64,000 bases of DNA, taken from positions 280,770 to 344,769 of the IMG/VR virus record IMGVR_UViG_3300024252_000004, one strand, 5' to 3'. This DNA is from a virus. Positions 1,375 through 63,534 of the stretch are shown piece after piece. Position 1 is the first letter of the stretch. Every line of letters starts with the position of its first letter. Made by a program: the position numbers and the translations under genes. Below the pieces are notes generated by a model that saw only the letters and a program-made list of their open reading frames with translations, did no database searches and had not been told where the DNA came from.

Positions 1375-1686
1375 ATGGCGGGCTCGGTAATGCCTTTGTT
1401 CGAAGATATGAAGTTTCTTAAAGCGACGAAATATCCGGTGGCAAAAGTTGGTATTATTTATCTTACGGAAAACCGTAGGGGCGGAATAATCTATGCTGCT
1501 GAACGAGATCAATGTTATCTGTACGATATGGGAAAGGGAAAATGGAAAACGGTTATTCCGGGTTCATACCTTCAATGCCCAGGCAATTGGGCTCGTCATC
1601 TTAACGCATTAGAGAAAAGAAAATTTGTTTCATTGATGAACATTCTTAAATTCAAGAATTGGACATACAAGAAAGTTTACAAGTAG
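1375..1686 (+). CDS. hypothetical protein
   Basis: 103-aa ORF abutting previous gene. Confidence 0.4.
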   Translation: MAGSVMPLFEDMKFLKATKYPVAKVGIIYLTENRRGGIIYAAERDQCYLYDMGKGKWKTVIPGSYLQCPGNWARHLNALEKRKFVSLMNILKFKNWTYKKVYK

Positions 1687-1694
1687 AGGTGCTT

Positions 1695-2129
1695 ATGAGC
1701 ATTCAGGACACAGTTAAGGCCCACATGAAAGAGGCCATGTATAGCCGAGATAAACCTCGCCTTACTGCCCTTCGCGGTATCAAGGCTGAGCTTACCAAGG
1801 AGACGAAGATCAAGGGTGTTGAGACTCTTTCTGAGGAAAAGAGTATAAAGATCCTGCGAAGGCTTGCAAAGCAGCGAACAGAATCCGCTACTGTTTATTC
1901 AGATGCGGGAAGAGATGAGCTTGCAGAGCAGGAGCGTTTCGAGCTTGGGATCATCGAAAGTTTTCTCCCCGCCCTGGCAGGTGAGGCAGAAACTCGTGTA
2001 TGGATTCAGGAGGCCATCGATAGTGGGGCGTCTAACATGGGCGCAGTAATGGGGATGGTTATGAAGTCTCATAGAAGTGAGGCTGACGGCAAGCTTGTTC
2101 GCAAGCTTGTGCAGGAAATGCTTAAGTAA
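1695..2129 (+). CDS. YqeY/GatB-domain protein
   Basis: SD GAGGTG then ATG 1695; sequence MSIQDTVKAHMKEAMYSRDKPRLTALRGIKAEL...ADGKLVRKLVQEML matches YqeY (GatB C-terminal-like) family along full length. Confidence 0.75.
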   Translation: MSIQDTVKAHMKEAMYSRDKPRLTALRGIKAELTKETKIKGVETLSEEKSIKILRRLAKQRTESATVYSDAGRDELAEQERFELGIIESFLPALAGEAETRVWIQEAIDSGASNMGAVMGMVMKSHRSEADGKLVRKLVQEMLK

Positions 2130-2555: not shown

Positions 2556-2646
2556 AGGACTGTAGCTCAGTTTTTGGTTAGAGCGCTCGCCTGATAAGTG
2601 AGAGGCCACTTGGTATACGTTGGTTCAAATCCAACCAGTCCTACCA
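2556..2646 (+). tRNA. tRNA-Ile(GAT)-like with 16-nt variable region (11-nt insertion)
   Basis: acceptor AGGACTG/CAGTCCT, D arm GCTC..GAGC, anticodon stem CTCGC/GTGAG loop CTGATAA; body matches bacterial tRNA-Ile(GAT) except ACTTGGTATAC inserted before T stem GTTGG/CCAAC. Confidence 0.55.
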
Positions 2647-3305: not shown

Positions 3306-3656
3306 ATGGGCTGCCCAAATTGTGGTGGAGAATCATATCTGACGACTTATCGAGCGAGATACCCTCGTGCAGGTAAGAGTCTTTTGGTTAAGTCAAAATG
3401 TATGATGTGTTCATCCTGTAGGACCCGGATAGGTCCTTTCAAATTCTTGACACCAGCGTTGGCAAATGAAAATGATGCTAACGCCGAGATAGAATGGGAA
3501 AGAAAATATAATGAGAAGATGCCTCCAGAATATCCGATGGGTCGTATAAGAAAGATTATGCGAACAGAGGAAGGTAAAAGGCGTGTAGCTGAAGCTTTTG
3601 GAAAAGCTTTGTACAAAGAAGTAGAGAAAACCTCTAAGGAGAGTAAAGATGATTAA
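3306..3656 (+). CDS. zinc-ribbon protein (CPNCG..CMMCSSC)
   Basis: 116-aa ORF with two Cys pairs. Confidence 0.45.
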   Translation: MGCPNCGGESYLTTYRARYPRAGKSLLVKSKCMMCSSCRTRIGPFKFLTPALANENDANAEIEWERKYNEKMPPEYPMGRIRKIMRTEEGKRRVAEAFGKALYKEVEKTSKESKDD

Positions 3657-4020
3657 TCAGAGCGATGTTGTTGAATACCTAAAGAACGTTAGCGTTATTG
3701 AACTTAGAGGTCTTATCGGGACTCTGGAGGATGAGCTTGGAGTTAAGATTCCAGAATACACAGCACCTTCTCAGTACGATCTCGGTTTTGGTGGCGGAGA
3801 GGTAGAGCAGACCGAGTTTACCGTTGTCCTTCAGGGCTTTGAGGGTAAGAAGGTTGCACTGATTAAGGTCGTGCGAGCACTTACAGGTCTCGGTCTAAAG
3901 GATGCAAAGGTCGCGGTAGAGTCCGCTCCTTATGTGATTAAGGAAGGCGTTGATAAGGGCGTAGCAGAAGAGGTTGCCGCTTCTATGAGAGAGGTTGGTG
4001 GCTTGGTAGACATTGTATAA
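3649..4020 (+). CDS. rplL: ribosomal protein bL12 (L7/L12) homolog
   Basis: SD AAGGAGAG then ATG 3649; N-terminal dimerisation/L10-binding region and C-terminal TGLGLKDAKVAVESAP..KEGV align with bacterial RplL. Confidence 0.8.
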   Translation: MINQSDVVEYLKNVSVIELRGLIGTLEDELGVKIPEYTAPSQYDLGFGGGEVEQTEFTVVLQGFEGKKVALIKVVRALTGLGLKDAKVAVESAPYVIKEGVDKGVAEEVAASMREVGGLVDIV

Positions 4021-4545: not shown

Positions 4546-4808
4546 GCATTTTTTCTAAAGTTATTGGCGAGAATATCTTTTTTAAACCAGAATTGTATCC
4601 GAGCGGAAATTGCTATGCTCATTATCCTTTGTCAACAAGGGATGTGAGTATTATATTGGAATATGATACGGGAAGATTTATCTATTACAAAATGAGACCA
4701 AGTGGATATGTTACAGGTGATCATATTTGTGCTGGGAAATTTTCGTCATACCTTTCCGAAAAGGAAAAGAAGTCATTTATTGAAATGTTGGAAAAGATCG
4801 AATCGTAG
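4542..4808 (+). CDS. hypothetical protein
   Basis: 88-aa ORF; 3' end overlaps tRNA start. Confidence 0.4.
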   Translation: MSIFSKVIGENIFFKPELYPSGNCYAHYPLSTRDVSIILEYDTGRFIYYKMRPSGYVTGDHICAGKFSSYLSEKEKKSFIEMLEKIES

Positions 4809-4876
4809 CTCAGTCCGGTAAGAGCACTCGGCTGATACCCGAGGGGTCGGTAGTTCAAATCTACCCGGTTCGACCA
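4799..4876 (+). tRNA. tRNA-Ile(GAT), CCA encoded
   Basis: acceptor CGAATCG/CGGTTCG, D arm GCTC-AGTCCGGTAA-GAGC, anticodon stem CTCGG/CCGAG loop CTGATAC, T-loop TTCAAAT. Confidence 0.7.
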
Positions 4877-7457: not shown

Positions 7458-8146
7458 AATGAATTCGATCATATTGGAAATTAAAGCTGCCGAAGGCGGC
7501 ACAGATGCAAAGCTCCTTGTTGATGAACAGTTGGCCATTTATAGGAGATACTGTTCTCGGAGGTCTCTTTGAGTTAGCTCTCTTAGATTCCAGAAGCGGT
7601 TTTATCAGATGCAGAGTCAGCGGCAAAAACGTCAAAAAACATTTTAGGCATGAGCCTGGAGGCCACAGATGGCAAAGGGTTCCTCCGACAGAGAGACGAG
7701 GAAGGGTTCATACTTCTACGATCACTGTCGCTGTCCTACCGGAAGTAACTGAATCTGAAGTTAAGATTAGCGAAAAAGATTTAGAATGGAAAGCCTTTAG
7801 GGGTTCTGGTCCCGGCGGTCAGCATAGAAACAAAACTGATTCTGCTGTGTCGCTTCACCATAAGCCTACTGGAATCAAGATCCGTTCTGAATCTCAAAAG
7901 AGTCAGAAGCAGAATAAGGACACCGCTCTTGCAATATTGAGAGCGAGGTTGCATTCTGAGCAGAGAGAGTCTCAGTCTTTGCGACGCAGTAATATGAGGA
8001 AGAGCCAAGTGGGCTCAGGTATGCGCGCCGACAAAATCAGGACGATCAGGTTGCAGGACGGACAAGTTACGGATCACAACACTGGAAAAAGAATCTCTGC
8101 GAAAAAATATTTGCGCGGAGACTTGGAAGGTCTATTTGAAAAGTAA
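7458..8146 (+). CDS. class I peptide chain release factor, RF1-like (PxT = PPT), lacking domain 1; needs +1 frameshift at 7570 and has an additional +1 frame break at 7499/7501
   Basis: SD GGAGG + ATG 7458; MNSIILEIKAAEGG (frame 0) / TDAKLLVDEQLAIYRRYCSRRSL (frame +1, stops at UGA 7570) / ELALLDSRSGF..GGHRWQRVPPTERRGRVHTS..SGPGGQHRNKTDSA..DKIRTIRLQDGQVTDH (frame +2) align contiguously to RF1. Confidence 0.75.
7559..7573 (+). other. prfB-type programmed +1 ribosomal frameshift site
   Basis: GGAGG-UCU-CUU-UGA-G: SD-like element 3 nt upstream of CUU UGA, same architecture and spacing as E. coli prfB AGGGGG-UAU-CUU-UGA-C. Confidence 0.7.
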
Positions 8147-8524: not shown

Positions 8525-8617
8525 TGCGGGGTCGACTAGTCTGGCCCATGTCACCAGTCTCATAAGCTGGCTCTGAGTATACCTCAATCGTTGGTTCAAA
8601 TCCAACCCCCGCACCCA
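8525..8617 (+). tRNA. tRNA-like, anticodon CAT on class-II scaffold (19-nt variable arm), CCA encoded
   Basis: acceptor TGCGGGG/CCCCGCA perfect, D stem GAC/GTC, anticodon stem CCAGT/GCTGG loop CTCATAA, variable arm hairpin TGAG-TATAC-CTCA, T arm identical to tRNA 2556. Confidence 0.5.
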
Positions 8618-9550: not shown

Positions 9551-9623
9551 AGCTGAGTAGCTCAATCGGTAGAGCAACAGGTTCATATCCTGTAGGTTGT
9601 AGGTTCAAGCCCTATCTCAGCTA
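9551..9623 (+). tRNA. tRNA-Met(CAT)
   Basis: acceptor AGCTGAG/CTCAGCT, D arm GCTC..GAGC, anticodon stem ACAGG/CCTGT loop TTCATAT, T-loop TTCAAGC. Confidence 0.65.
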
Positions 9624-9683
9624 CCGTAAAGTAGAAACATAGTTTGTGTTTCATTTAAACAATCATCAAAGGGGAGAATCATA

Positions 9684-14365: not shown

Positions 14366-14452
14366 GCTACTGTGGCCGAGCGGTTGAAGGCAGCAGGCTG
14401 TTAACCTGCCTGGGAAACCACATCATAGGTTCAAATCCTATCGGTAGCGCCA
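14366..14452 (+). tRNA. tRNA with tRNA-Ser body (D arm TGGCCGAGCGGTTGAAGGC, long variable arm, G73) but anticodon GTT
   Basis: acceptor GCTACTG/CGGTAGC, anticodon stem GCAGG/CCTGC loop CTGTTAA (one change from Ser GCT loop CTGCTAA), CCA encoded. Confidence 0.5.
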
Positions 14453-14728: not shown

Positions 14729-14978
14729 GGGTCGAGATAACGCGGTCAAGTAGAGTTCCCAAAGGGCTGTTTATGATACGGTCACAATCGAACGACCTAG
14801 AGTTATACCTGATTTGAATTCGGGCAATGGGCTGGCCAATAGTCCTTAGACGTAATCCTGTTGAAGTCGTCGCAGGTCCCACTTGAGGGTTGTTTTGGAC
14901 ATGGGTGCTTAGTGTCAACGGCAAGCACGATTGGCTGTTAACCAATTAGTTTGGGTTCAAATCCCAAAGTACCCGCCA
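14721..14978 (+). ncRNA. ORF-free structured RNA with tRNA-like 3' end (unknown class)
   Basis: no ORF of 60 aa or more; 3' TTGGG-TTCAAAT-CCCAA + AGTACCC-G-CCA; 5' GCGGGTA can pair with TACCCGC. Confidence 0.3.
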
Positions 14979-15003: not shown

Positions 15004-15288
15004 ATGAAAGAGATTTTTGGACCTTGGGTTAAGGCTGCAAGGTGTTTGGATTGCGACGACGGCTTTAAAAGCAAATGGAGTGCCTGGATTGAAGAAAGTG
15101 ATTTTGATACAGAGGAAGAGATGTTGGGGCAAACTCTCATCTGCCGCTCATGTGGCTCGATATTCAAATGGCAAAAAGCTGTCGGAAGAAAAATCAAAAC
15201 GTATAAAACATCTTGGATTTTTCTTGACAAATTGGTTAAAAGCGAATGGGAATGGCGACACGAAGCTGTTCTGGAAGGAATAAATTGA
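15004..15288 (+). CDS. hypothetical Cys-containing protein
   Basis: 94-aa ORF, CLDCDD..CRSCG. Confidence 0.4.
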   Translation: MKEIFGPWVKAARCLDCDDGFKSKWSAWIEESDFDTEEEMLGQTLICRSCGSIFKWQKAVGRKIKTYKTSWIFLDKLVKSEWEWRHEAVLEGIN

Positions 15289-15704
15289 AAAGAGTTTATG
15301 TTGATATGGACGGAGTCCTTTGTGATTACGTTGCAAAATTTACAGAACTCCGTAACGAAGGAAACAAGTTTCCTCAGCAAAGCTTTGACTTCTTCAGAAG
15401 TATGAAGCCTATGCCATCGGCTCTTGCAGCTATGGGAATACTATCTAAACATTTCGATGTTTGGATTTTGACTAAGCCTTCCTACAAAAACCCTATGTCT
15501 TATACAGAAAAGAGACTTTGGGTTGAGGACCATCTTGGTCTGGATTGGTGTAAGAAGCTGATCCTTTGTCCTGATAAGGGATTGGTTATAGGAGATTATC
15601 TTATTGATGATTTCTTGTGGCCTGAATTTCAAGGTGAACAAGTTCATTTTGGTTCAAATAGATTTCCAAATTGGAGATCGGTAATAGATTATATGCGCCC
15701 GTGA
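15246..15704 (+). CDS. HAD-superfamily 5'(3')-deoxyribonucleotidase-like phosphatase
   Basis: VYVDMDGVLCD motif I (DxDxV); start may be TTG 15284 rather than ATG 15246. Confidence 0.55.
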   Translation: MGMATRSCSGRNKLKRVYVDMDGVLCDYVAKFTELRNEGNKFPQQSFDFFRSMKPMPSALAAMGILSKHFDVWILTKPSYKNPMSYTEKRLWVEDHLGLDWCKKLILCPDKGLVIGDYLIDDFLWPEFQGEQVHFGSNRFPNWRSVIDYMRP

Positions 15705-15785
15705 GCCGAGTGGTTGATGGCCCCAGACTCTTAATCTGGTACAGGTAGTGCTGCAACGTAGGTTCGAATCCTACCGGGCGTACCA
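15695..15785 (+). tRNA. class-II scaffold tRNA with anticodon CTT (Lys codon AAG), A73, CCA encoded
   Basis: acceptor GCGCCCG/CGGGCGT, D arm GCC-GAGTGGTTGAT-GGC, anticodon stem CCAGA/TCTGG loop CTCTTAA, 18-nt variable arm, T-loop TTCGAAT. Confidence 0.5.
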
Positions 15786-17425: not shown

Positions 17426-17937
17426 TGAAATATACAAACTACGCTTTTGATTTTGGCTACGCTGAGTCAGGAAGCTTCTCCCTGCTAATGATGAAACATC
17501 CTGATGGATTCGTGGATCCGCTTGATGGTATAAGGGATCTCAATAATCTTTTCCAGAAGATTACTGCATCCAAATATGGAATCGGCGAAGACGGAAGAAG
17601 CCTGTTGACTTCTGATACAAAAGAGTGTTGCAGGAAATATCATCCGAATCTGGAAATGAATGTCTGTCCTATCTGTGGCAGCAGATTCACCGCGAAAACA
17701 TTTAAGGATCTCTGCACGGAAGAACTATGGTTCCAGCTATGTCGCGGAACAAATGATAGTTTCGGCGGAGAGGCATGGGAGTTCCTCGAAGAGTCAAAAT
17801 GGGAAGTCATTGGTCCAGAAGGTGGCAAATGGGTCACCGTCAGTAATGCTAGAAATATTCCTGACGGTCAAGGTTTCTACATTAATGTAAAGGGTCTATA
17901 CGACTTCAAATACATTAGGGAGAATATCTATGAGTAA
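17422..17937 (+). CDS. hypothetical protein
   Basis: 171-aa ORF; CPICGSRF. Confidence 0.45.
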   Translation: MMKYTNYAFDFGYAESGSFSLLMMKHPDGFVDPLDGIRDLNNLFQKITASKYGIGEDGRSLLTSDTKECCRKYHPNLEMNVCPICGSRFTAKTFKDLCTEELWFQLCRGTNDSFGGEAWEFLEESKWEVIGPEGGKWVTVSNARNIPDGQGFYINVKGLYDFKYIRENIYE

Positions 17938-18213: not shown

Positions 18214-18290
18214 GCCCTATTAGCATAGCGGTCCAATGCTGCGGCCTTTTAAGCCGATGATCCGGGGTTCGAATCCCTGATGGGGTACCA
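18214..18290 (+). tRNA. tRNA-Lys(TTT), CCA encoded
   Basis: acceptor GCCCTAT/ATGGGGT (two G-U), anticodon loop CTTTTAA, T arm CGGGG-TTCGAAT-CCCTG. Confidence 0.6.
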
Positions 18291-20282: not shown

Positions 20283-21515
20283 ATGAGTAAGCCAGTAGAT
20301 TTTTTGATTTCATTTGACACCACGGGCAGCATGTATAGTTGTCTGTTGCAGGTGAGACGTAAGGCCGCAGGACTTGTCGAGCTTCTGTTTTCGCAGAACC
20401 CTGATATCCGTATCGGAGTAATTGCTCACGGTGACTATTGTGACACCTCAAGTTCTTACTTGAGCAAGGTTCTTGACCTTACAGAGAATAAGCGTTCTAT
20501 TCTTGAGTTTATCGAAACAGTTGGTAGCACAGGTGGTGGAAGCTTCGCAGAGGCTTATGAGCATGTTTTGTGGCAGGCTCGTGCTCTTACTTGGAGGGCA
20601 GGAAGTGAGCGTGCATTTGTCATGATTGGCGATGCTGTACCTCATAATAAAAGTATCTGGGGAACCAGAGAGGGTGGACACATCGTTAACCCTAAGTCTC
20701 TTGATTGGCAGAATGAAGCAAAGGTTCTGCATCAGGATCTTGGAGTTAAGATTTTCGGAGTCCATGCGTTGGCTTCCGCTCGTAGAGGCAGCGCATACTT
20801 CTGGAAGGATCTAGCAAGTATCACTGGCGGAAAGTACCTGAAGCTTGATCAGTTTGATGAGCTTTCTTACATGTTGAGAGCCATCATGTATAATCAGTCT
20901 GGTCAGGACGAGTTCATGACTCAGTTTGTCAACGAGGTAACGAACGACAGACAGATGACTCAGAACATGGCTGATATCTTTGAAGACATGACAGGTTCTC
21001 GACCTGAGGTCAACAAGGTTTCTATCGGTGGCGGTGGAAGAGGTAGAACGAGAACAAGGACTACGACCAGAACGGTAACAGTCGCGACAACTGTGTCTGC
21101 TTCAGACCTTGCAGCTTACCCTGATGTAAGCTTGGAGCCAGTAGCTCCGGGTAGATTCCAGATGCTTTCAGTCGAAACAAAGTCTCCGATTAGGGACTTC
21201 GTTAGGGACAATGTTGGTGCGACTCTTTTCAAAAAGGGTGCAGGTTACTACCAATTAGGTTCTAAGGCTGTGAAGATCCAGGGATACAAAAGAGTCGTTC
21301 TTGTCAATAGAGAGACGGGCGAGCTTTGGTCTGGAGATACAGCGAGAAAGATGCTTGGACTCCCGTTTGGGAAGGATTTTAAACTTTATCCTAAGAAGGT
21401 AGAGACTCAGAAGTTTCTCAGCGAGTACGATGTATTCGTGCAGAGCACCTCGGTTAACCGAGCACTGCAAGCTGGTGATGTCTTCTTGTACGAAGTTGCC
21501 GAGTTCGTGTCATGA
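20283..21515 (+). CDS. von Willebrand factor A (vWA) domain protein
   Basis: N-terminal ISFDTTGSM MIDAS-like motif and vWA fold; Arg/Thr-rich low-complexity linker; -10 TATAAT 20255 and SD upstream. Confidence 0.6.
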   Translation: MSKPVDFLISFDTTGSMYSCLLQVRRKAAGLVELLFSQNPDIRIGVIAHGDYCDTSSSYLSKVLDLTENKRSILEFIETVGSTGGGSFAEAYEHVLWQARALTWRAGSERAFVMIGDAVPHNKSIWGTREGGHIVNPKSLDWQNEAKVLHQDLGVKIFGVHALASARRGSAYFWKDLASITGGKYLKLDQFDELSYMLRAIMYNQSGQDEFMTQFVNEVTNDRQMTQNMADIFEDMTGSRPEVNKVSIGGGGRGRTRTRTTTRTVTVATTVSASDLAAYPDVSLEPVAPGRFQMLSVETKSPIRDFVRDNVGATLFKKGAGYYQLGSKAVKIQGYKRVVLVNRETGELWSGDTARKMLGLPFGKDFKLYPKKVETQKFLSEYDVFVQSTSVNRALQAGDVFLYEVAEFVS

Positions 21516-23238: not shown

Positions 23239-23756
23239 TGAAATACAAAGTAAAGAAAGGTGCGATGAACTCGGGCGGCATTAGTAAACTCATAGAGTTT
23301 GCAGAAACTCTGAACTATACGCCGTGTTCAACTTGGCTCGGATATTACAAAGAAAAGGTATTCTACCTTGGCGATATGAGCAAAGAAGATGTTCCGAAAA
23401 TTCTGCACAGTCTTGCTCCTGCGATCCTCGGAAAGCTATCGGCTCTTGGAGAGCTAAGCGAAGACAATCTTTTTAATCAAATCGTGATTAAGAAGTATGC
23501 CGAAGGAGACGAAGGCAAGCCGCATTTTGATCCAAGAGATATTAAGGGGAAGGTCGTTGCAATTCACTTTGGTGACTTTGAGCTTAGTACGGTAAGGTTT
23601 GATGGCGAAGAAGTAATGGTTGACTCTGGGGATGTCATCATCCGACAGGCAACATCGGGTTACACGATGGGGCCAAAGTACAACGTAAGTGCAGTTGAGG
23701 GCGGCACAAAATATGTCCTCGAATTCCAAACAATCACTAAGGAGAAACCCTCTTGA
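23238..23756 (+). CDS. hypothetical protein
   Basis: 172-aa ORF from GTG overlapping previous stop. Confidence 0.45.
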   Translation: MKYKVKKGAMNSGGISKLIEFAETLNYTPCSTWLGYYKEKVFYLGDMSKEDVPKILHSLAPAILGKLSALGELSEDNLFNQIVIKKYAEGDEGKPHFDPRDIKGKVVAIHFGDFELSTVRFDGEEVMVDSGDVIIRQATSGYTMGPKYNVSAVEGGTKYVLEFQTITKEKPS

Positions 23757-24238
23757 AAACAAGAGTAAATTCTGATATCATAGCAAGAAGAGTTCTTCTC
23801 ATTGGAGGAGACGGTTCCAAGGTTGGCATTTTTCAGACAAGAGATGCCATAAGTAAAGCACAGGAGGCAGGTCTTGACCTGTTGCAGGTCAGCGCAGATC
23901 AGGAAGTTCCCGTGTGTAAGATTGTCGATTATGGCAAGATGCTTTATCTTCTAAAGAAGGGCAAGAAGGCTAAGGGATCAAGGGTTGTTGTGAAGGAAGT
24001 GAAGTTCGGACCTAACACTGGTGATGCTGATATTCAGGTCAGAGTTAAGGCTGCGAACAAATTCCTCTCCAAGGGTAACCACGTCAAGTTTACCGTCAGG
24101 GTGAAGGGTCGTGCAAACGCTCACAGAGACCTTGTCATCGATAAGCTTGCAGAAGTTCTTGAGAAGGTAGAGGGGAAAGTAGAGAAGGCTCCATCCTTCT
24201 CAGGCAACATATGCTCGGCGCTTGTCGTGCCGGAGTAA
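23753..24238 (+). CDS. infC: translation initiation factor IF-3 homolog, UUG start
   Basis: SD AAGGAGA then TTG 23753, no in-frame ATG before conserved NTD; LIGGDGSKVGIF..EAGLDLLQVSADQEVPVCKIVDYGK and KEVKFGPNTGDADIQVRVKAANKFL..RVKGRANAH match IF3 N and C domains. Confidence 0.8.
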   Translation: MKTRVNSDIIARRVLLIGGDGSKVGIFQTRDAISKAQEAGLDLLQVSADQEVPVCKIVDYGKMLYLLKKGKKAKGSRVVVKEVKFGPNTGDADIQVRVKAANKFLSKGNHVKFTVRVKGRANAHRDLVIDKLAEVLEKVEGKVEKAPSFSGNICSALVVPE

Positions 24239-32800: not shown

Positions 32801-33451
32801 ATGAAAGTAGTATGCATATCAGATACGCACAACAAACATGAACAAATTGAGATACCAGAGTGCGATCTGCTTTTGCATACCGGAGACTTTTCGTCCAGAG
32901 GCTATAAGCACGAGTTTCAAAACTTTGTCAAGTGGCTGGACAAACAGCCTGCAAAGCACAAAGTATTTATATCTGGCAATCACGATTACATTTGCCAAAA
33001 AGAACGAGAGTTTGTTGCGGAATTCGTAGCAGACTACGATGTTCATTACTTGCTTGATAGCTCCGTTGAAATAGAAGGTCTCAAAATCTATGGCAGCCCT
33101 TGGCAGCCTTGGTTTCACAATTGGGCCTTCAACTTCAATAAGAATGATCATGCTCAGGCTATATCAACTTGGGCTAAAATCCCTGATGATACTGATGTAT
33201 TACTTACACATGGGCCACCATACAAGGTCCTTGATAGAGTGGCGAGAGTCATGCATGCTGGAGAAGATCCGAATGTTGGGTGCAAGTTCCTTTTAGGAAG
33301 AGTCATGGAAGTTAAGCCAAAGCTTCATGTTTTCGGACATATCCACGAGGCTTATGGGCAGCTTGAGCACAACGGAACACTTTTCATTAATGCTGCGAGT
33401 TGCACCTTACAATATCAGCCAACTAACTTAGCGACAGTAACGGAGCTATGA
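32801..33451 (+). CDS. calcineurin-like metallophosphoesterase
   Basis: ISDTH..GD..GNHD..THGPP..GHIHE motifs. Confidence 0.7.
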   Translation: MKVVCISDTHNKHEQIEIPECDLLLHTGDFSSRGYKHEFQNFVKWLDKQPAKHKVFISGNHDYICQKEREFVAEFVADYDVHYLLDSSVEIEGLKIYGSPWQPWFHNWAFNFNKNDHAQAISTWAKIPDDTDVLLTHGPPYKVLDRVARVMHAGEDPNVGCKFLLGRVMEVKPKLHVFGHIHEAYGQLEHNGTLFINAASCTLQYQPTNLATVTEL

Positions 33452-35223: not shown

Positions 35224-36138
35224 ATGCACCTAACGTCAATAGAACAAATTGACCGAGAGACATTAGAGAAGTTATTCCAAAGAGCGGATTACTGGAAAAG
35301 AATAAGAACACAAAAGCTTACAACAATTAAGCCGCTTCAGGGCCGCTTATTGACAAACCTATTTTATGAGCCATCGACAAGGACTGCATCATCGTTCTTT
35401 GCGGCGGCTTCTTTTCTTGGTGCCTCTGTTAATCAAATTACCAATGTAGCTTTCTCTTCTGTATCAAAAGGCGAAACGTTTGAAGACACCATTCTGACTC
35501 TCGCACAATACTCTGACGGAATTATCTTAAGGCACCCTGAGAAAGGGTACGCAGACTTAGCCGCCAGTGTGTCTCCTGTCCCCATCATTAATGCTGGGGA
35601 TGGCACAGGTGAACACCCTACTCAGACGCTACTTGATTTATATACAATATACTCAGAGCTTGGCAGGATAGATGACTTAGCTGTGGCAATGGTTGGTGAT
35701 CTTAAAAATGGGCGAACAGTTCATAGTTTAACTAAAGCGTTTGCAAAGTACGAAACAGAAACCGATCTTATTTTCATCTCTCCAGAAGAGCTTAAGATGC
35801 CCGAAGAGTATTGCGAAGTCTCTAAGGTTCTTGGGATACAAGAAACAGAAGATATGACTTCCGCAATGGAAAATAATCATATCGATGTACTGTATATGAC
35901 TCGCATACAAAAAGAGCGCTTCAATAATCAAGAAGATTATAAAAGGTATCATGGCTGCTATGAGCTTACGCCAAAAGAAATGAAGCTCATGCCGGACGAA
36001 TCATGTGTCCTTCATCCCTTGCCAAGGGTTGGGGAGATATCGTCAGAGGTTGATCACGACCCAAGGGCTGCATACTTTCGTCAAGTAAAGAATGGTATGT
36101 TCATGAGAATGGCGATATTAGAGGCATTAATTTCTTAA
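35224..36138 (+). CDS. pyrB: aspartate carbamoyltransferase catalytic subunit
   Basis: EPSTRT carbamoyl-phosphate motif, HPTQ, and VLHPLPRVGEI..FRQVKNGMFMRMAILEAL characteristic of ATCase rather than OTCase. Confidence 0.8.
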   Translation: MHLTSIEQIDRETLEKLFQRADYWKRIRTQKLTTIKPLQGRLLTNLFYEPSTRTASSFFAAASFLGASVNQITNVAFSSVSKGETFEDTILTLAQYSDGIILRHPEKGYADLAASVSPVPIINAGDGTGEHPTQTLLDLYTIYSELGRIDDLAVAMVGDLKNGRTVHSLTKAFAKYETETDLIFISPEELKMPEEYCEVSKVLGIQETEDMTSAMENNHIDVLYMTRIQKERFNNQEDYKRYHGCYELTPKEMKLMPDESCVLHPLPRVGEISSEVDHDPRAAYFRQVKNGMFMRMAILEALIS

Positions 36139-39858: not shown

Positions 39859-40554
39859 ATGGATTCCGCGAAATATCCCAGGTCGCTGCATTGGCCGAGT
39901 TCCCCAGGAACTACCTCAGATGACCGTTTCATTACACAGGCACAAGCGCTCGCATTTCTAAATGTCGAGACTGTGCTTACCGAAAAGCTTGACGGTGGAA
40001 ATACTACCATAACGAGAGATGCCTTTTTTGCAAGGTCTCATGGTGGAGAACCAGCTCACCCGTCATTCAATCTTCTACGCACCCTTCATAAGAATTATCT
40101 ATGTAGGGCCATTGATAAAAATATATCAGTATTTGCTGAGTGGTGCTTCGCAGTACACTCAATTAGGTACTCGATGCTTCAAGATTATCTCAACATTATC
40201 GCCGTCAGGAATGATGAAACCGGCGAATGGTGGGATTGGGACGAAGTATGTTTGATGGCTGATCACCTCGGCTTCCCCACTGTACCAGTTCTACTCCGTG
40301 GAACGTTTACAGACATAGGCGCCTTGGAAAAAACTATGACCACGTTCTCTGGCTTGTCGTCTTTGTACGGCCCAACAAGAGAAGGTGTAGTTCTAAGAAA
40401 AGTCAAGGGTGTTGCTGAGATCAAAGACGAGCGTGGTCTTTGCTTAGATGGTCTTGCTAAGTGGGTAAGAGAAGATCATGTTCAAACGGACGAACATTGG
40501 AGCAAGAAGAAAGTTGAAATTCAGCCAACCATATCGGCACTGAGTTTTATGTAA
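39859..40554 (+). CDS. ATP-dependent RNA ligase (RNA_ligase/DRB0094-like family)
   Basis: KYPRSLHWPSSPG..DD N-terminal signature and nucleotidyltransferase motif I TEKLDGGN (KxDG). Confidence 0.6.
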   Translation: MDSAKYPRSLHWPSSPGTTSDDRFITQAQALAFLNVETVLTEKLDGGNTTITRDAFFARSHGGEPAHPSFNLLRTLHKNYLCRAIDKNISVFAEWCFAVHSIRYSMLQDYLNIIAVRNDETGEWWDWDEVCLMADHLGFPTVPVLLRGTFTDIGALEKTMTTFSGLSSLYGPTREGVVLRKVKGVAEIKDERGLCLDGLAKWVREDHVQTDEHWSKKKVEIQPTISALSFM

Positions 40555-44443: not shown

Positions 44444-44846
44444 GGGGGCGTTTTGGATTCGACCGGGTAACAGATAGGAATAGTGCAAGCCGATCAAGGT
44501 AACTCAGATCGTTATAAGCGTTACAAAAAACAAACTAGTTGACGACTATTCATTCGTGTACGCAAACGCAGGCAGAGGCTTCGGCGCTCCTGTAGTAGCA
44601 TACGCCTAATTCCGATTTAGGCATGTGGACTCTGTGTTCCATATATCCAAACACAGATAAGTGGTTGAACGCACTGACATAAACATTGTTCAAAAATGGA
44701 GTAGCCCGAAAGGGAGGAGGCGTCTATCATTTGGCGTCAGGGGATAAAATGAATACTTTGCCTATTTAGAGAAATGGGATAAGCTTGTGAACGACTTGAA
44801 ATTGACGTTATGCGACACGAGGGTTCGACTCCCTCCGCCTCCACCA
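44444..44846 (+). ncRNA. ssrA: tmRNA (SsrA), standard one-piece
   Basis: 5' GGGGGCGTTTTGGATTCGACCGGG and 3' GAGGGTTCGACTCCCTCCGCCTCCACCA match tmRNA termini; acceptor GGGGGCG/CGCCTCC with G3-U70 and A73; tag frame GCA AAC GCA GGC AGA GGC TTC GGC GCT CCT GTA GTA GCA TAC GCC TAA (ANAGRGFGAPVVAYA). Confidence 0.85.
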
Positions 44847-49600: not shown

Positions 49601-50725
49601 ATGAATATAATTCAAGCCAGTAATGCTAACGTAGTAAGGGTTGCGGAGTATTTCCTACCAAAGGAAATTACAAATCAAAACTTAATAATAGCAGGTGGGT
49701 TTGCTACGTGGCTGCTATATTTGCATAAGACCGTAGAAGATTGGGATAAGTTTTTTGCAGACTTAGATGTGAGTCTCATAAATCTTGAGGATAAACGGTT
49801 AAAGGATGAAGCGACAAAAGGTATTGCGAAATTTGGAGATATAGATATCTGGATTCCGGAGAACCATTCTTTAAGAAAGATGAAAATAATCACAAGTCAG
49901 GAGCTTTATCCCTTTGGCCTTAAAGAAAACGCAGGACTTGTGGAGAAAAGTCTTGCTTCCGAGAAATCATTTGAGAAAAGCTTCGGCATTTCCTCTGACC
50001 TTCTGAAGGTTAGCAGATTCGCACACACATATAGGCTTGAGCATACAGTTAAACTTTTAGGAAAAATAGCGGTTCCGTCAGTGTTCGGCTTGTTTGAGCC
50101 AATTGTAATTCCGTATAGAAAGCGAATTAAAATGAGGAATGCTTTTCAGATTATAAGAAGAACCTGTGATTCGTTAGAGGAAGTTTTTTCTACATTTGAT
50201 TTTCACCATACAAGAGCAGCCTACTACAATGGCTTACTACACTTTACAAAAAAAGCTGAGAGGACTTTCGAAGAGAAGACAATCTTTCCGACAAAGAGTT
50301 TCCTTGAGCGACACGATAGCATATCTATTAACTCTGCCTGTAGAGCATTTAAGTATATGGAGAGGTACGGATTTGGCTTCTCAGAAGACTTGGCAGATAA
50401 GATTGCGGACCTGTATCTTCAAGTTGGAATAGCAGAGGATACTGCGGATTATGTTGGCCCTCCAAAATATGCCATCATCAATTTATTCAATGCAACGAAT
50501 CTCACCCCAGAGTATGATCCAGATTATTTAATCTTTTTTTCAGAGATCACTCCAGAAACCTTGAGTAAGGTTAAAGGTATTTATCTTAAAAGATTTCTAA
50601 CATCATTTAAGACATTTTCGAGAATGTCATGCTTTAAAGATGAGTATATAGGTTTGTTGCTATGTTGCGACATGGAAGAAATAAGTAAAGTAATCGAGAG
50701 GCGACTATATGAACAATCCGACTGA
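49601..50725 (+). CDS. hypothetical protein; weak nucleotidyltransferase-like N-terminus
   Basis: 374-aa ORF; IIAGGFATWLLY..DLDVSL..FGDIDIWIPE loosely resembles GS..DxD of pol-beta-type NTases. Confidence 0.45.
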   Translation: MNIIQASNANVVRVAEYFLPKEITNQNLIIAGGFATWLLYLHKTVEDWDKFFADLDVSLINLEDKRLKDEATKGIAKFGDIDIWIPENHSLRKMKIITSQELYPFGLKENAGLVEKSLASEKSFEKSFGISSDLLKVSRFAHTYRLEHTVKLLGKIAVPSVFGLFEPIVIPYRKRIKMRNAFQIIRRTCDSLEEVFSTFDFHHTRAAYYNGLLHFTKKAERTFEEKTIFPTKSFLERHDSISINSACRAFKYMERYGFGFSEDLADKIADLYLQVGIAEDTADYVGPPKYAIINLFNATNLTPEYDPDYLIFFSEITPETLSKVKGIYLKRFLTSFKTFSRMSCFKDEYIGLLLCCDMEEISKVIERRLYEQSD

Positions 50726-59014: not shown

Positions 59015-59087
59015 GGAGCATGTCCGTAGCTCTTAGTAGTTGCCTTGTATTCGCTTCGGTACTATTATCGCTCATGGAGGAATTTAC

Positions 59088-60098
59088 ATGTTGTTATCCG
59101 CAGATGTTGTAGTGGGGCTCGCTTGGGGCGATGAAGCAAAAGGAAAGATCACCTCAGCCTTGGCAGCTACAGGGCAGTACGACGCCGTGGCTCGCTGGGC
59201 CGGAGGCAATAACGCAGGCCATACGGTCTACGTCAATGGCGAAAAATACAAAACACACCTTGTTCCAAGCGGCGTATTCCACGGAATGCTTTCCATCGTT
59301 GGTCCCGGCTGTGTATTGCATCCAGAAGAATTTGAAAAAGAATTGGCTTACCTCGCAGGACACGGATTCGATACCTCTCTTGTGAAGGTATCTCCGAATT
59401 GCCACATTGTTCAAGACGAGCATATTGAGTTTGACAAGCAGAACCTTGCAAAGAAGCTTGGCACAACCTCAAAAGGTATTGCACCGAGTTACGCAGCTAA
59501 GGCGGCAAGAACAGGTCTTCTTGCCAAAGACTATTACGAAGGCAGTGACATCCTATGGGACGGTCAGCTTAGCGGTGTATTATTGTGTGAAGGAGCGCAG
59601 GGGGCTTGGTTAGATATTGATCACGGGAATTATCCCTATGTGACCTCAAGCATTACACTTGCCTATGGAGCTTGCAGTATAGGCTTCGCACCACAGCTCA
59701 TTAAGAGCATCTGGGGCGCTGCCAAAATTTATGACACAAGAAGCGGAGAAGATCCTATTTTTCCTGCGTCACTACTTGATGACCCTATGCTGTCAAAGGT
59801 TGGGGAAATTGGGGCCGAATATGGTGTGACCACAGGGCGCAGAAGAAAGGTAAATTGGCTTGATGTTGATATGCTGATTAAGTCTATCAATTTGACTGGA
59901 TGCACACACGTTGTTGTTAGCAAATGTGATGTATTGGAAGAGGCCGGAGTTTACAGGATGTATTGTAGAGGGATTCAGAACGAGCTTTCTGAGTTCGAAA
60001 GCATTACCGATATGACCGGAGTGCTGGAGACTCTTCTTAGAAAGAATTGTTCCCTTCTCAAGAGAGTGATCTTTTCCTCTTCACCGGAGAATATATGA
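59088..60098 (+). CDS. purA: adenylosuccinate synthetase
   Basis: SD GGAGG + ATG 59088; VVVGLAWGDEAKGK P-loop and GGNNAGHTV motif. Confidence 0.85.
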   Translation: MLLSADVVVGLAWGDEAKGKITSALAATGQYDAVARWAGGNNAGHTVYVNGEKYKTHLVPSGVFHGMLSIVGPGCVLHPEEFEKELAYLAGHGFDTSLVKVSPNCHIVQDEHIEFDKQNLAKKLGTTSKGIAPSYAAKAARTGLLAKDYYEGSDILWDGQLSGVLLCEGAQGAWLDIDHGNYPYVTSSITLAYGACSIGFAPQLIKSIWGAAKIYDTRSGEDPIFPASLLDDPMLSKVGEIGAEYGVTTGRRRKVNWLDVDMLIKSINLTGCTHVVVSKCDVLEEAGVYRMYCRGIQNELSEFESITDMTGVLETLLRKNCSLLKRVIFSSSPENI

Positions 60099-62490: not shown

Positions 62491-63534
62491 ATGAAATTAA
62501 GAAGAGCTTTAGCATTTGATGACGTGCTTCTTGTTCCAAGAAAATCAGAGATACCTTCCAGGCTTGCCGTTGATCCTTCAGTAGACGTTGGTGGAATCAA
62601 ATTAGGCATTCCCCTTATTTCCTCTCCAATGGATACTGTAACAGAAGGACTTATGGCAAAACAACTTGGGCTGCTTGGCGGTCTGGGGATAATTCATAGG
62701 TACTGTTCTGTTAGTGAACAAATTGCTCACTTAAGAATACCAATTGCTGCCGGAGTATATGGAGGCTTTGCAATCGGAGTTGGAGCAGAAGCGGAAGAAA
62801 GATTCTCCATGATTCTGGAAGAATATGGCAGCAGCCTTGATGTTGTATGCATTGACATTGCGAATGGCCATAGCACGCTTATGGAGAGGACCATTAAGAA
62901 AGTTAGAGATATGGCTCCAGATATTTCAATCATGGCAGGAAATGTTGCTACCAGAGACGGATACAGGTTTCTCGCAGATCTCGGAGTAAATTCTGTCAGG
63001 GTAGGTATCGGCGGAGGAAGCATCTGCAAAACGCGAATTCAGACAGGGTTCGGCGTTCCTACATTTTCTTCTCTTCTTTGGGCCGCAGACGCTAAAGAGT
63101 CTGGTAAATACGAGGCGTCCATCATTGCAGATGGAGGCATTAGGCACCCCGGAGATTTAGCTAAAAGCATTGCGGCCGGCGCAGATGCTGTTATCTGTGG
63201 TAGCATCTTTGCTGGGAGCAAAGAAGCCCCTGGTGATGTAATCACATGGACAGATGGCATTGCCTATAAGAAATACAGGGGAATGGCATCGGAAGAGATT
63301 CAGGTAGAGAAGAGGGGCGGAATGAAGCCGGGAACCTGCGCAGAAGGAACGTCTACTCTTGTTAGATATGAAGGCTCCATGAAGAGAGTCACTGAGGAGT
63401 TTGAGGGCGGAATTAGGTCCGCCTTAACTTACAACGGTTCTTGGGATATTCCACATTTCCAGGTGACCGCAGAATTTATTGAGATTACAGATTCTGGATT
63501 AAGAGAGTCTCACTCTCACGGAACAAGGAAATAA
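62491..63534 (+). CDS. GMP reductase-like IMPDH/GMPR-family enzyme (no CBS domains)
   Basis: 347 aa, same length as GuaC; FDDVLLVP, IDIANGHS, catalytic loop GIGGGSICKTR, ADGGIRHPGDLAKSIAAGADAV. Confidence 0.7.
   Translation: MKLRRALAFDDVLLVPRKSEIPSRLAVDPSVDVGGIKLGIPLISSPMDTVTEGLMAKQLGLLGGLGIIHRYCSVSEQIAHLRIPIAAGVYGGFAIGVGAEAEERFSMILEEYGSSLDVVCIDIANGHSTLMERTIKKVRDMAPDISIMAGNVATRDGYRFLADLGVNSVRVGIGGGSICKTRIQTGFGVPTFSSLLWAADAKESGKYEASIIADGGIRHPGDLAKSIAAGADAVICGSIFAGSKEAPGDVITWTDGIAYKKYRGMASEEIQVEKRGGMKPGTCAEGTSTLVRYEGSMKRVTEEFEGGIRSALTYNGSWDIPHFQVTAEFIEITDSGLRESHSHGTRK

Follow-up and report, generated by a model that had tools for sequence, protein, structure and literature searches.

How does a tRNA with a lysine anticodon come to have the long variable arm of a class II tRNA, and does it still carry lysine? 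The question is raised by a gene on the plus strand at 15695-15785 of a 64,000-nucleotide (nt) stretch of viral DNA (IMG/VR record IMGVR_UViG_3300024252_000004, positions 280,770 to 344,769; hereafter the window), which is part of a very large phage genome. By the textbook rule, long variable arms occur only on the tRNAs for Leu, Ser, Tyr (in bacteria) and Sec. An earlier, sequence-only reading of the window had described the gene as a class II-type tRNA with anticodon CTT and had likened its identity to the Leu or Tyr type.

The explanation that we favor, at a probability of about 0.55, is a working lysine tRNA with a protective arm. The gene would encode a functional elongator tRNA of the phage; host lysyl-tRNA synthetase (LysRS) would charge it with lysine via U35, U36 and A73, and it would decode AAG, the phage's commonest lysine codon. 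Its D-stem and linker core would have been remodeled in class II fashion to hold a short variable-region hairpin. This arm would be a module selected across a family of phage tRNAs, mainly Lys, Asn, Thr(UGU) and Ile(UAU), and sometimes Cys, Glu and Trp. It may make the tRNA a poor substrate for enzymes that cut the anticodon arm, namely PARIS AriB, P2 OLD, and PrrC- and Schlafen-type nucleases. The native anticodon stem-loop could thereby be kept, whereas tRNAs of the T5 resistant type mutate theirs. The widespread, apparently unremarked class matters more than the single gene in the window.

Structure of the tRNA and its companions in the window

ARAGORN returned a 91-nt tRNA-Lys(ctt) at 15695-15785 (+), with the same ends as in the sequence-only reading. 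The Rfam tRNA model RF00005 was matched over its full length (1-71) at 53.5 bits, compared with a gathering score of 29; the E-values were 1e-8 for the whole window and 3e-11 locally. The Rfam alignment placed CUU at positions 34-36 independently of ARAGORN and read 15 nt of the variable region as inserted. All invariant tRNA positions were present in an intact cloverleaf, including U33, G18G19 and a GTTCGAAT-type T loop, and the acceptor/T geometry was 7/5. The earlier reading had considered that a better fold might set another triplet in the anticodon. This was ruled out: ARAGORN, the Rfam model and the minimum-energy fold all gave CUU. Indeed, the unaided minimum-energy fold reproduced all five arms. 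The fold energy was no better than that of shuffled sequences (z = -0.68); thus, the case for a tRNA rests on the covariance-model score and not on thermodynamic stability. The parts of the molecule are as follows.

15695..15785 (+), long-arm tRNA-Lys(CUU), 91 nt (ARAGORN; Rfam RF00005, score and alignment)
15695-15701 / 15775-15781 (+), acceptor stem GCGCCCG/CGGGCGU, with G1-U72 (ARAGORN cloverleaf)
15702..15704 (+), 3-nt linker U8-G-A9, one base above standard (g inserted after U8 in the Rfam alignment)
15705..15721 (+), D arm with stem GCCG/UGGC (three Watson-Crick pairs and a G-U) and loop AGUGGUUGA containing A14, G15, G18 and G19
15723..15739 (+), anticodon arm CCAGA-CUCUUAA-UCUGG, with anticodon CUU at 15730-15732
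15740..15757 (+), variable region of 18 nt, UA-CAG-GUAGUG-CUG-CAAC (ARAGORN and arm analysis)
15742-15744 and 15751-15753 (+), variable-arm stem CAG and CUG, enclosing the loop GUAGUG
15754-15757 (+), variable-arm tail CAAC
15758..15774 (+), T arm GUAGG-UUCGAAU-CCUAC (ARAGORN, Rfam alignment)
15782 (+), A73, followed by encoded CCA at 15783-15785 (ARAGORN, Rfam alignment)

The acceptor stem, T arm, CTT anticodon stem-loop, A73, CCA and 18-nt arm described earlier each held. For the D stem, which had been given as 3 bp, the three Watson-Crick pairs stood and a G-U pair was added. Class I architecture, with its variable loop of 4-5 nt, is absent, the variable region being 18 nt with a hairpin. 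Judged by its sequence, the D arm together with the linker is a class II-like core.

ARAGORN found 31 tRNA genes and one transfer-messenger RNA (tmRNA) in the window, all on the plus strand. With Rfam, it also recovered the ordinary tRNA-Lys(TTT) at 18214 and all four long-arm tRNAs (GAT at 2556, CAT at 8525, GTT at 14366, and CTT) that the sequence-only reading had listed. The other three long-arm genes and the ordinary counterparts are the following.

2556..2646 (+), long-arm tRNA-Ile(GAU), 91 nt, A73, class I-type D arm (ARAGORN, Rfam)
4799-4876 (+), ordinary tRNA-Ile(GAU)
8525..8617 (+), long-arm CAU tRNA (Met or Ile2), 93 nt, U1-A72, C73 (ARAGORN, Rfam)
9551-9625 (+), ordinary tRNA-Met(CAU)
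14366..14452 (+), long-arm tRNA-Asn(GUU), 87 nt, G73 (ARAGORN, Rfam)
14903-14978 (+), ordinary tRNA-Asn(GUU)
18214..18290 (+), ordinary tRNA-Lys(UUU), 77 nt, partner isoacceptor (ARAGORN, Rfam)

Each long-arm gene has an ordinary tRNA of its own amino acid no more than two tRNA positions away (permutation p = 0.0003), and just one of the four is near a Leu or Tyr tRNA. The suspicion that the pattern is non-random was borne out by this cognate grouping and by the recurrence of the same oddity in hundreds of viral contigs. Two tRNA-Gln genes were found in the 2.5 kb directly upstream of the window. The tRNA array thus extends beyond it, and no meaning attaches to the absence from the window of tRNAs for Ser, Gly, Cys and His.

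The long Ile(GAT) (2556-2646) and CAT (8525-8617) tRNAs have an identical 19-nt T arm (CGTTGGTTCAAATCCAACC), and long arms on these two anticodons are rare elsewhere (2/70 and 3/50, respectively). With U1-A72 and the rare C73, the long CAT tRNA could be Met, Ile2 (lysidine) or something else.

The arm as a conserved module of phage tRNAs

Viral contigs were searched using a pattern in which a long variable region comes after a CTT anticodon loop and the T loop is fixed. Of 87 places, 60 were genuine long-arm tRNA-Lys(CTT) by ARAGORN, or 52 distinct ones after de-duplication. The same loci held further distinct long-arm tRNAs: 19 Lys(TTT), 9 Asn(GTT), 4 Ile(TAT), 4 Thr(TGT) and a few others. 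These and the later long-arm counts describe loci that are pattern-selected and phylogenetically non-independent.

Within the long-arm Lys tRNAs, the arm is a covarying helix under selection. A 3-bp stem with a 4-nt loop, in a fixed register from the T stem, was present in 50 of 71, compared with 7.6 +/- 2.5 (maximum 15) for shuffled arms. At every one of the three pairs, G-C, C-G, A-U and U-A all occurred, and 39 of the 50 loops were GNRA. Set beside the arms of the class II tRNAs, its design is as follows.

Ser arm: stem of 5-7 bp; 1 unpaired nt 3' of the stem
Leu arm: stem of 3-5 bp; 2 unpaired nt (GT) 3' of the stem
Tyr arm: stem of 3-4 bp; 3-4 unpaired nt 3' of the stem
Long-arm Lys arm: spacer of 0-2 nt (usually 1), stem of 3-4 bp, mostly GNRA loop; tail of 3-4 nt, mostly CA(U/C/A)C

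We defined the long-arm Lys family by a YUU anticodon, the arm listed above with a tail ending in C, and location in a phage tRNA array. The window copy belongs to this family, with a 2-nt spacer, a 3-bp stem and the tail CAAC, its 6-nt loop being atypical. The arm of the Asn(GUU) tRNA at 14366 is of the family type (UGG-GAAA-CCA, tail CAUC). The closest relatives of the window copy, from loci L010, L011, L044 and L066, have linker, D arm and T arm in common with it, and the T arm is identical in L010 and L011. L010 comes from a 332-kb viral contig and has eight syntenic proteins 28-62% identical to those of the window phage and the same tRNA order (Tyr, long Lys, Glu, Glu); to judge by this synteny, it is a true distant relative. 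Its long Lys(CTT) has the same GUGAGC linker and T arm as the window copy, with compensatory changes in the D and anticodon stems.

The class also occurs in cultured phages. In phiKZ and its relatives, a tRNA-Asn of normal length is accompanied by one of 87 nt. The complete array of phiCbK contains no short Lys, its two Lys tRNAs being a CTT of 87 nt and a TTT of 91 nt. Long Lys(CTT) is the only Lys seen in the CcrBL9 array. Further long-arm tRNAs were found in XacN1, Cellulophaga phi4:1 and phages of Rhodobacter, Ruegeria, Mesorhizobium and Microcystis. The existing labels on those of cultured phages are "tRNA-Lys", "tRNA-Asn", "tRNA-Ser" or "tRNA-OTHER". Every Lys tRNA seen was long-armed in 18 of the 36 arrays that comprise 10 tRNAs or more, and long CTT co-occurs with long TTT in 11 arrays.

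Two further scans, for which only the relative yields are interpretable, extended the range of isotypes. A looser Asn scan gave at least 89 long-arm Asn(GTT) among the 119 matches listed. A Glu(TTC) scan, intended as a negative control, gave at least 27 real long-arm Glu(TTC) among the 119 matches listed; it thus failed as a control and widened the phenomenon. Relative to matches outside called tRNAs, the two yields were approximately 12-fold apart among the matches listed.

In cellular assemblies, 15 of 23 long Lys(CTT) lay in loci of 6-34 tRNAs and the other eight in loci of at most three. Five of these eight were in archaeal assemblies, at 93-94 nt or 87-89 nt, and presumably contain introns. 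A housekeeping tRNA of some bacterial lineage was rejected as an explanation, as most copies in cellular assemblies sit in tRNA arrays. The long-arm Lys tRNA is a feature of phages and mobile elements.

Open-access papers and bioRxiv preprints yielded no account of phage tRNAs for Lys or Asn with a long arm, an earlier description elsewhere being possible, and the XacN1 genome paper makes no mention of long-arm tRNAs. The class is apparently undescribed. Numerous conserved phage tRNAs, for Lys, Asn, Thr, Ile and further amino acids, are exceptions to the textbook rule; their carriers include phiKZ, phiCbK, XacN1 and many uncultivated giant phages. Annotation pipelines and recoding screens that treat a long arm with a non-Leu/Ser/Tyr anticodon as an error or as recoding should allow for this class.

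Several minor observations were made in these arrays. The 91-nt long-arm Lys(TTT) of phiCbK (L446 4080-4170; JX163858.1) adjoins the annotated tRNA-Lys CTT and is unannotated in the GenBank record. By ARAGORN, that record also lacks a tRNA-Ala(TGC) and an Ile(AAT), and the tRNA-Glu(TTC) at L446 2025-2102, annotated as 82 nt, is 78 nt long. XacN1 (L088) has an 86-nt tRNA-Gly(TCC) at 20459-20544 and two adjacent amber-suppressor tRNAs at 17453-17611. The converse oddity was seen in tRNA-Leu: 31 of 79 distinct phage Leu tRNAs in the first locus set had a variable region shorter than 10 nt, as in an 80-nt Leu(CAG) (L001 1716-1795).

Which amino acid the tRNA carries

The identity set of bacterial LysRS comprises U35, U36, C/U34 and A73. 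The window copy has these elements in CUU at 15730-15732 and A73 at 15782. Alternatively, tyrosyl-tRNA synthetase (TyrRS), or its leucyl or seryl counterpart, might charge the scaffold, and Tyr, Leu or Ser would then be inserted at AAG, deliberately or as a tolerated error. These enzymes need the anticodon little or only in part, and such a system would have analogs in the nematode V-arm tRNAs and the allo-tRNAs. Features consistent with such mis-decoding are the long arm itself, A73, a D arm resembling that of tRNA-Ser, and U35, as in tRNA-Tyr. Across the long-arm tRNAs, the discriminator tracks the anticodon: G73 in 9 of 9 Asn, U73 in 4 of 4 Thr, A73 in 7 of 7 Ile and A73 in 37 of 52 Lys(CTT). 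Similarly, U1-A72 was present in 5 of 9 long Asn and 15 of 20 short Asn, compared with 0 of 35 Ser.

The bodies of the tRNAs were evaluated using an anticodon-blind, position-specific classifier based on 55 positions, without the anticodon, variable region and D loop (74% cross-validated accuracy). It assigned long-arm tRNAs to their own isotype in 24/27 cases for Glu, 9/11 for Cys, 10/16 for Thr, 5/6 for Gln and 48/88 for Asn; in sequence terms, these are plainly cognate bodies to which an arm was added. For long Lys, the acceptor stem with position 73 behaved as in genuine short Lys, and the anticodon stem and loop flanks were Lys-like in 28 of 62, compared with 19 of 91 short phage Lys. The class II likeness of long Lys was located in positions 8 and 9, the D stem, position 26 and the pattern-fixed T arm. 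Classified by the core, the window copy was Ser/Cys/His-like and the long-arm Lys family Ser/Cys/Tyr-like. In nearest-neighbor comparisons of tRNA bodies, Lys, Tyr and Ser were all enriched 2-3.5-fold.

Several results weigh against lysine and provide the mis-decoding account with its remaining support. Using all positions, the classifier called 23 of 62 long Lys as Tyr and 17 as Lys. For the window copy, Leu and Lys were nearly tied (scores of -41.6 for Leu, -41.9 for Lys, -42.7 for Arg and -44.2 for Tyr). The split by region given above accounted for much of this ambiguity; core remodeling and the T-loop bias of the search explain part of it, not all. The arm geometry of long Lys (3-4 bp, 3-4-nt tail) is closest to that of tRNA-Tyr. 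Finally, 13 of 52 long Lys(CTT), including those of CcrBL9 and CcrSC, have U73, a discriminator not typical of tRNAs for Lys, Leu, Ser or Tyr.

We compared the window copy with the class II tRNAs of the same arrays. The Leu tRNAs have a variable region ending in T (87/100), a GAA D loop and mostly a GT tail; in long Lys, the region ends in C (50/62), with G15, and the window copy, with its CAAC tail, is likewise. Leu identity was rejected: only A73 is shared, and a Leu anticodon, A15-U48, the GAA D loop, the final T and the 2-nt tail are all absent. The Ser tRNAs have G73 (32/35), a stem of 5-7 bp (28/36) and a 1-nt tail (26/36). Ser identity was also rejected, the window copy having A73, a 3-bp stem and a 4-nt tail. 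The window copy resembles tRNA-Tyr in A73, U35 and its arm geometry, and differs in lacking G34 and A36, its anticodon being CUU. Given the shared features, some charging by TyrRS is conceivable.

Codon usage provided an independent view. The open reading frames (ORFs) of the window contain 575 AAG and 516 AAA codons. The window encodes a GroEL, which was aligned with two solved GroELs. Its 12 AAG codons fell opposite K in 5-6 cases and otherwise opposite R, Q or E or a single S, P or T, and never opposite L or Y; AAC codons fell opposite N or D, and ATC codons opposite I, M, L or V. AAG is thus an ordinary lysine codon of the phage, and the majority one, and mis-insertion there would harm the phage's own proteome.

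A mis-incorporating tRNA is very hard to reconcile with this standard use of AAG, with the Lys-like acceptor and anticodon stems, with the arrays, that of phiCbK and many others, in which long-arm tRNAs are the sole Lys tRNAs, and with their occurrence as CTT and TTT pairs. The absence of Leu and Ser marks and of the Tyr anticodon bases, and the cognate bodies of long Glu, Cys, Thr and Asn, argue in the same direction. We consider insertion of Tyr, Leu or Ser very unlikely, and the window tRNA is quite probably charged with lysine. Of the earlier proposal, the class II-like arm with a Lys anticodon stood, and the implied mis-reading of a Lys codon by a class II scaffold was not supported. The Leu/Tyr-type identity that had been drawn from the arm and A73 gave way to the missing Leu and Ser marks, the Lys-like stems and the normal use of AAG. 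If the arm did change charging, it would be the first natural case of a phage system that mis-decodes sense codons.

Among known tRNAs, the class II tRNAs (bacterial Tyr, Ser and Leu) share the long arm, short D stem, large D loop and 7/5 geometry; the defining features of tRNA-Leu, tRNA-Ser and tRNA-Tyr are lacking in the window tRNA. The allo-tRNAs, some of which occur in phage tRNA clusters, have 8/4 or 9/3 acceptor/T geometry and Ser or Ala identity (Mukai et al. 2017, PMC5389517). They resemble the window tRNA in combining a long arm with diverse non-Ser/Leu anticodons. An allo-tRNA was nevertheless rejected on the basis of the 7/5 geometry and A73. Conceptually, the closest parallel is offered by the nematode V-arm tRNAs (nev-tRNAs) and the noncanonical V-arm tRNAs of eukaryotes (Hamashima et al.), which pair a class I anticodon with a long arm; these are tRNA-Leu-like and reportedly charged with leucine, hence mis-decoding. 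In contrast, the bodies of the phage family follow the anticodon isotype and codon use is normal; the phage tRNAs also belong to another domain and occur in phage arrays.

A possible role for the arm and the phage that carries it

Several host defenses cleave tRNAs. The cut made by PARIS AriB, in U36-A-A-U-C|A, separates position 40 from 41; its targets are Lys(UUU), Thr(UGU) and Asn(GUU), and Thr(CGU) is hardly affected (PMC12409363). P2 OLD is defeated by a phage Thr(UGU), and tRNA-Lys is the target of PrrC and of a bacterial Schlafen. The resistant tRNAs of T5 are normal-length class I molecules with point substitutions at 39, 41 and 16, the U39 change being part of the resistance of T5 tRNA-Lys; substitution of U39 abolishes cleavage by AriB (PMC12409363).

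We evaluated which isoacceptors are armed by pooling three differently selected locus sets, leaving the selected anticodon out of its own set. The fractions with a long arm were as follows.

Ile(TAT), 13/23
Thr(TGT), 16/57
Asn(GTT), 7/25
Cys(GCA), 11/45
Lys(TTT), 18/76
Trp(CCA), 6/42
Ile(GAU), 2/70
Arg(UCU), 1/42
Phe(GAA), 1/58
Thr(GGT) and Thr(CGT) together, 0/41
Gln(CTG), 0/32
Glu(CTC), 0/19
Ala(TGC), 0/47
Gly(GCC), 0/35

The arm is isoacceptor-specific (Thr TGT versus GGT and CGT, p = 1e-4; Ile TAT versus GAT, p = 4e-8). The three AriB targets were enriched 5-fold among the arm-bearing tRNAs (p = 1e-12, kinship ignored). These fractions bear on a structural alternative, in which the hairpin steadies fragile tRNAs with A/U-rich anticodons that are made in a burst and under-modified during infection, with no link to defense. 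The preference for U- or A-rich anticodons (Lys UUU, Ile UAU, Thr UGU, Asn GUU) would fit, as would GNRA tetraloops, which are known stable caps. However, the equally A/U-rich Phe(GAA), Arg(UCU) and Ile(GAU) are seldom armed, and G/C-rich Cys(GCA) and Trp(CCA) carry arms. Moreover, the stability of the window tRNA is unremarkable, and the coexistence of long and short versions with the same anticodon is left unexplained. We therefore judge stabilization alone to be an unlikely role.

That coexistence was observed in the window and in phiKZ, and the two versions can be compared at the cleavage site. UAAUC at positions 36-40 was kept in 50 of 71 long-arm Lys and in 7 of 32 short phage Lys (p = 5e-6). 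The long Lys of the window reads U36-A-A-U-C, followed by U41, and the ordinary Lys(UUU) at 18214 reads UAAGCC at 36-41, with U39 replaced. Retention of UAAUC and an arm weaker than the family norm might also be expected of a gene that is non-translational or decaying, such as a decoy, primer, regulatory RNA or pseudogene, and the AriB paper raises phage tRNAs as competitive nuclease decoys (PMC12409363). Against this, the cloverleaf and invariant positions are intact, CCA is encoded and the model score is high. The tRNA is also conserved with compensatory changes in distant relatives, and such tRNAs are the sole Lys tRNAs of other phages. We regard a decoy or pseudogene as highly improbable.

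The isoacceptor bias, the retention of UAAUC, the coexistence of long and short versions and the presence of the candidate repair genes and of a Gad2-labeled gene, both described below, together suggested a structural escape from tRNA-targeting immunity. On this analysis, it is plausible, at somewhat below even odds, that the arm protects the tRNA from tRNA-cleaving host defenses. A more specific version is put forward more tentatively: the arm may be a portable armor module, in which a grafted GNRA-capped hairpin with core remodeling gives resistance to OLD-family TOPRIM enzymes such as AriB and P2 OLD, and possibly to others, with the native anticodon stem-loop kept for efficient decoding. 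The window tRNA would act much like a supplementary or resistant tRNA encoded by a phage. The cleavage-resistant phage tRNAs already described (T5 tRNA-Lys(UUU), Thr(UGU) and Asn(GUU) against AriB, Thr(UGU) against P2 OLD, and tRNA-Lys against PrrC) are likewise phage-encoded versions of the same isoacceptors. The host pool beside them is sensitive to cleavage, and tRNA-repair genes are often found in those phages (PMC12409363; PMC11555353; bioRxiv 10.64898/2026.07.10.737580). The T5 type uses point substitutions; the window tRNA instead keeps U39 and C40 and adds an arm and a remodeled core, with putative resistance.

Several points weigh against protection. Ile(UAU), Cys and Trp carry arms and are not reported PARIS targets, and the known resistant phage tRNAs, those of T5, rely on point substitutions and not on arms. 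The window copy has U41, compared with A41 in the AriB site, and its arm is weak, with 3 bp and a 6-nt non-GNRA loop. Phage lineages arm different isotypes: where arrays had been chosen for a long Asn, just 2 of 64 Lys tRNAs were long. The selected and related nature of the loci, stated above, adds to these.

If the arm does shield tRNAs, it would represent a new counter-defense principle and a design rule for nuclease-resistant or orthogonal tRNAs. Armor of this kind would be a second, structural route to tRNase evasion beside the T5 point substitutions, used by phiKZ for Asn and by phiCbK for Lys, and the isoacceptors armed in each lineage would report which tRNAs the defenses of its hosts attack.

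The arm might instead be a positive handle, recognized by a phage or host factor, such as a modification enzyme, processing nuclease, repair ligase or translation factor, for preferential maturation, repair or use of phage tRNAs. Its conserved design (1-nt spacer, 3-4-bp stem, GNRA loop and CA(U/C/A)C tail) is consistent with this. So is the phage's set of an RNA ligase, SpoU-family methyltransferase, IF3, RF1-like protein, bL12 homolog and YqeY-like protein, of which the ligase and methyltransferase are common to the relative L010. However, we found no protein whose occurrence is tied specifically to that of long-arm tRNAs. These tRNAs are also carried by phages with few translation genes, such as phiCbK, and the isoacceptor bias is left unexplained; a handle thus seems rather unlikely. 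A handle and stabilization are nevertheless the main alternatives to protection. A TrmL-like methyltransferase that uses the arm was rejected as a candidate: E. coli TrmL ignores the variable arm (PMC4615657), and the phage enzyme scores far below the TrmH/TrmL cut-offs.

Returning to the phage, the window is identical to stretches of a 130-kb Joint Genome Institute contig and a 414-kb ENA contig. Look-ups for population variants of the long Lys(CTT) returned only identical copies, megablast found no close relatives among GenBank phages, and a downstream 299-aa protein had no match in viral contigs. The candidate repair genes are the following.

15246-15704 (+), HAD-type phosphatase, with a weak polynucleotide-kinase PHROG match
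32801-33451 (+), calcineurin-type metallophosphoesterase
39859-40554 (+), RNA ligase (Pfam PF09414, phrog_24030), common to L010
52396-53100 (+), calcineurin-type metallophosphoesterase

Together, the ligase, metallophosphoesterases and phosphatase could form a tRNA heal-and-seal repair kit. The TGA stop of the phosphatase-like ORF is the U8-G-A9 linker of the long Lys(CTT); the gene and tRNA overlap by 10 nt and are presumably co-transcribed.

Further translation genes and other functions were noted in the window. No aminoacyl-tRNA synthetase was found among the window ORFs scanned.

1659-2129 (+), YqeY/GatB-like protein
~3649-4020 (+), bL12 homolog, assigned from precomputed Pfam hits on an identical contig
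7505-8146 (+), RF1-like protein of 213 aa
21691-21768 (+), amber-suppressor tRNA, anticodon CTA
23753-24238 (+), full-length IF3 homolog
35224-36138, aspartate/ornithine carbamoyltransferase
44444-44846 (+), phage tmRNA (Rfam, 81 bits)
49601-50725 (+), 374-aa protein with a Gad2 label (PF26128)
59040-60098, adenylosuccinate synthetase
62491-63534, IMP dehydrogenase/GMP reductase family protein

The RF1-like protein aligns solely to the C-terminal portion of release factor 1 (model 157-335 of 347) and is without the N-terminal third. Recoding of TAG tied to the amber suppressor was rejected for lack of signal: TAG read-through lengthens open frames less than TAA or TGA read-through does, and 14 of 82 ORFs end in TAG. 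Gad2 is an anti-Gabija protein; the label comes from the precomputed annotation of identical contigs and is unconfirmed, our own Pfam scan being empty for this protein. Nearly all genes and all tRNAs in the window (1-64000) are on the plus strand; the GC skew is positive throughout, and the cumulative skew rises monotonically. Finally, the phage tmRNA encodes an unusual tag peptide, DDYSFVYANAGRGFGAPVVAYA, and a tmRNA also lies within the tRNA region of XacN1 (L088 18607-19027).

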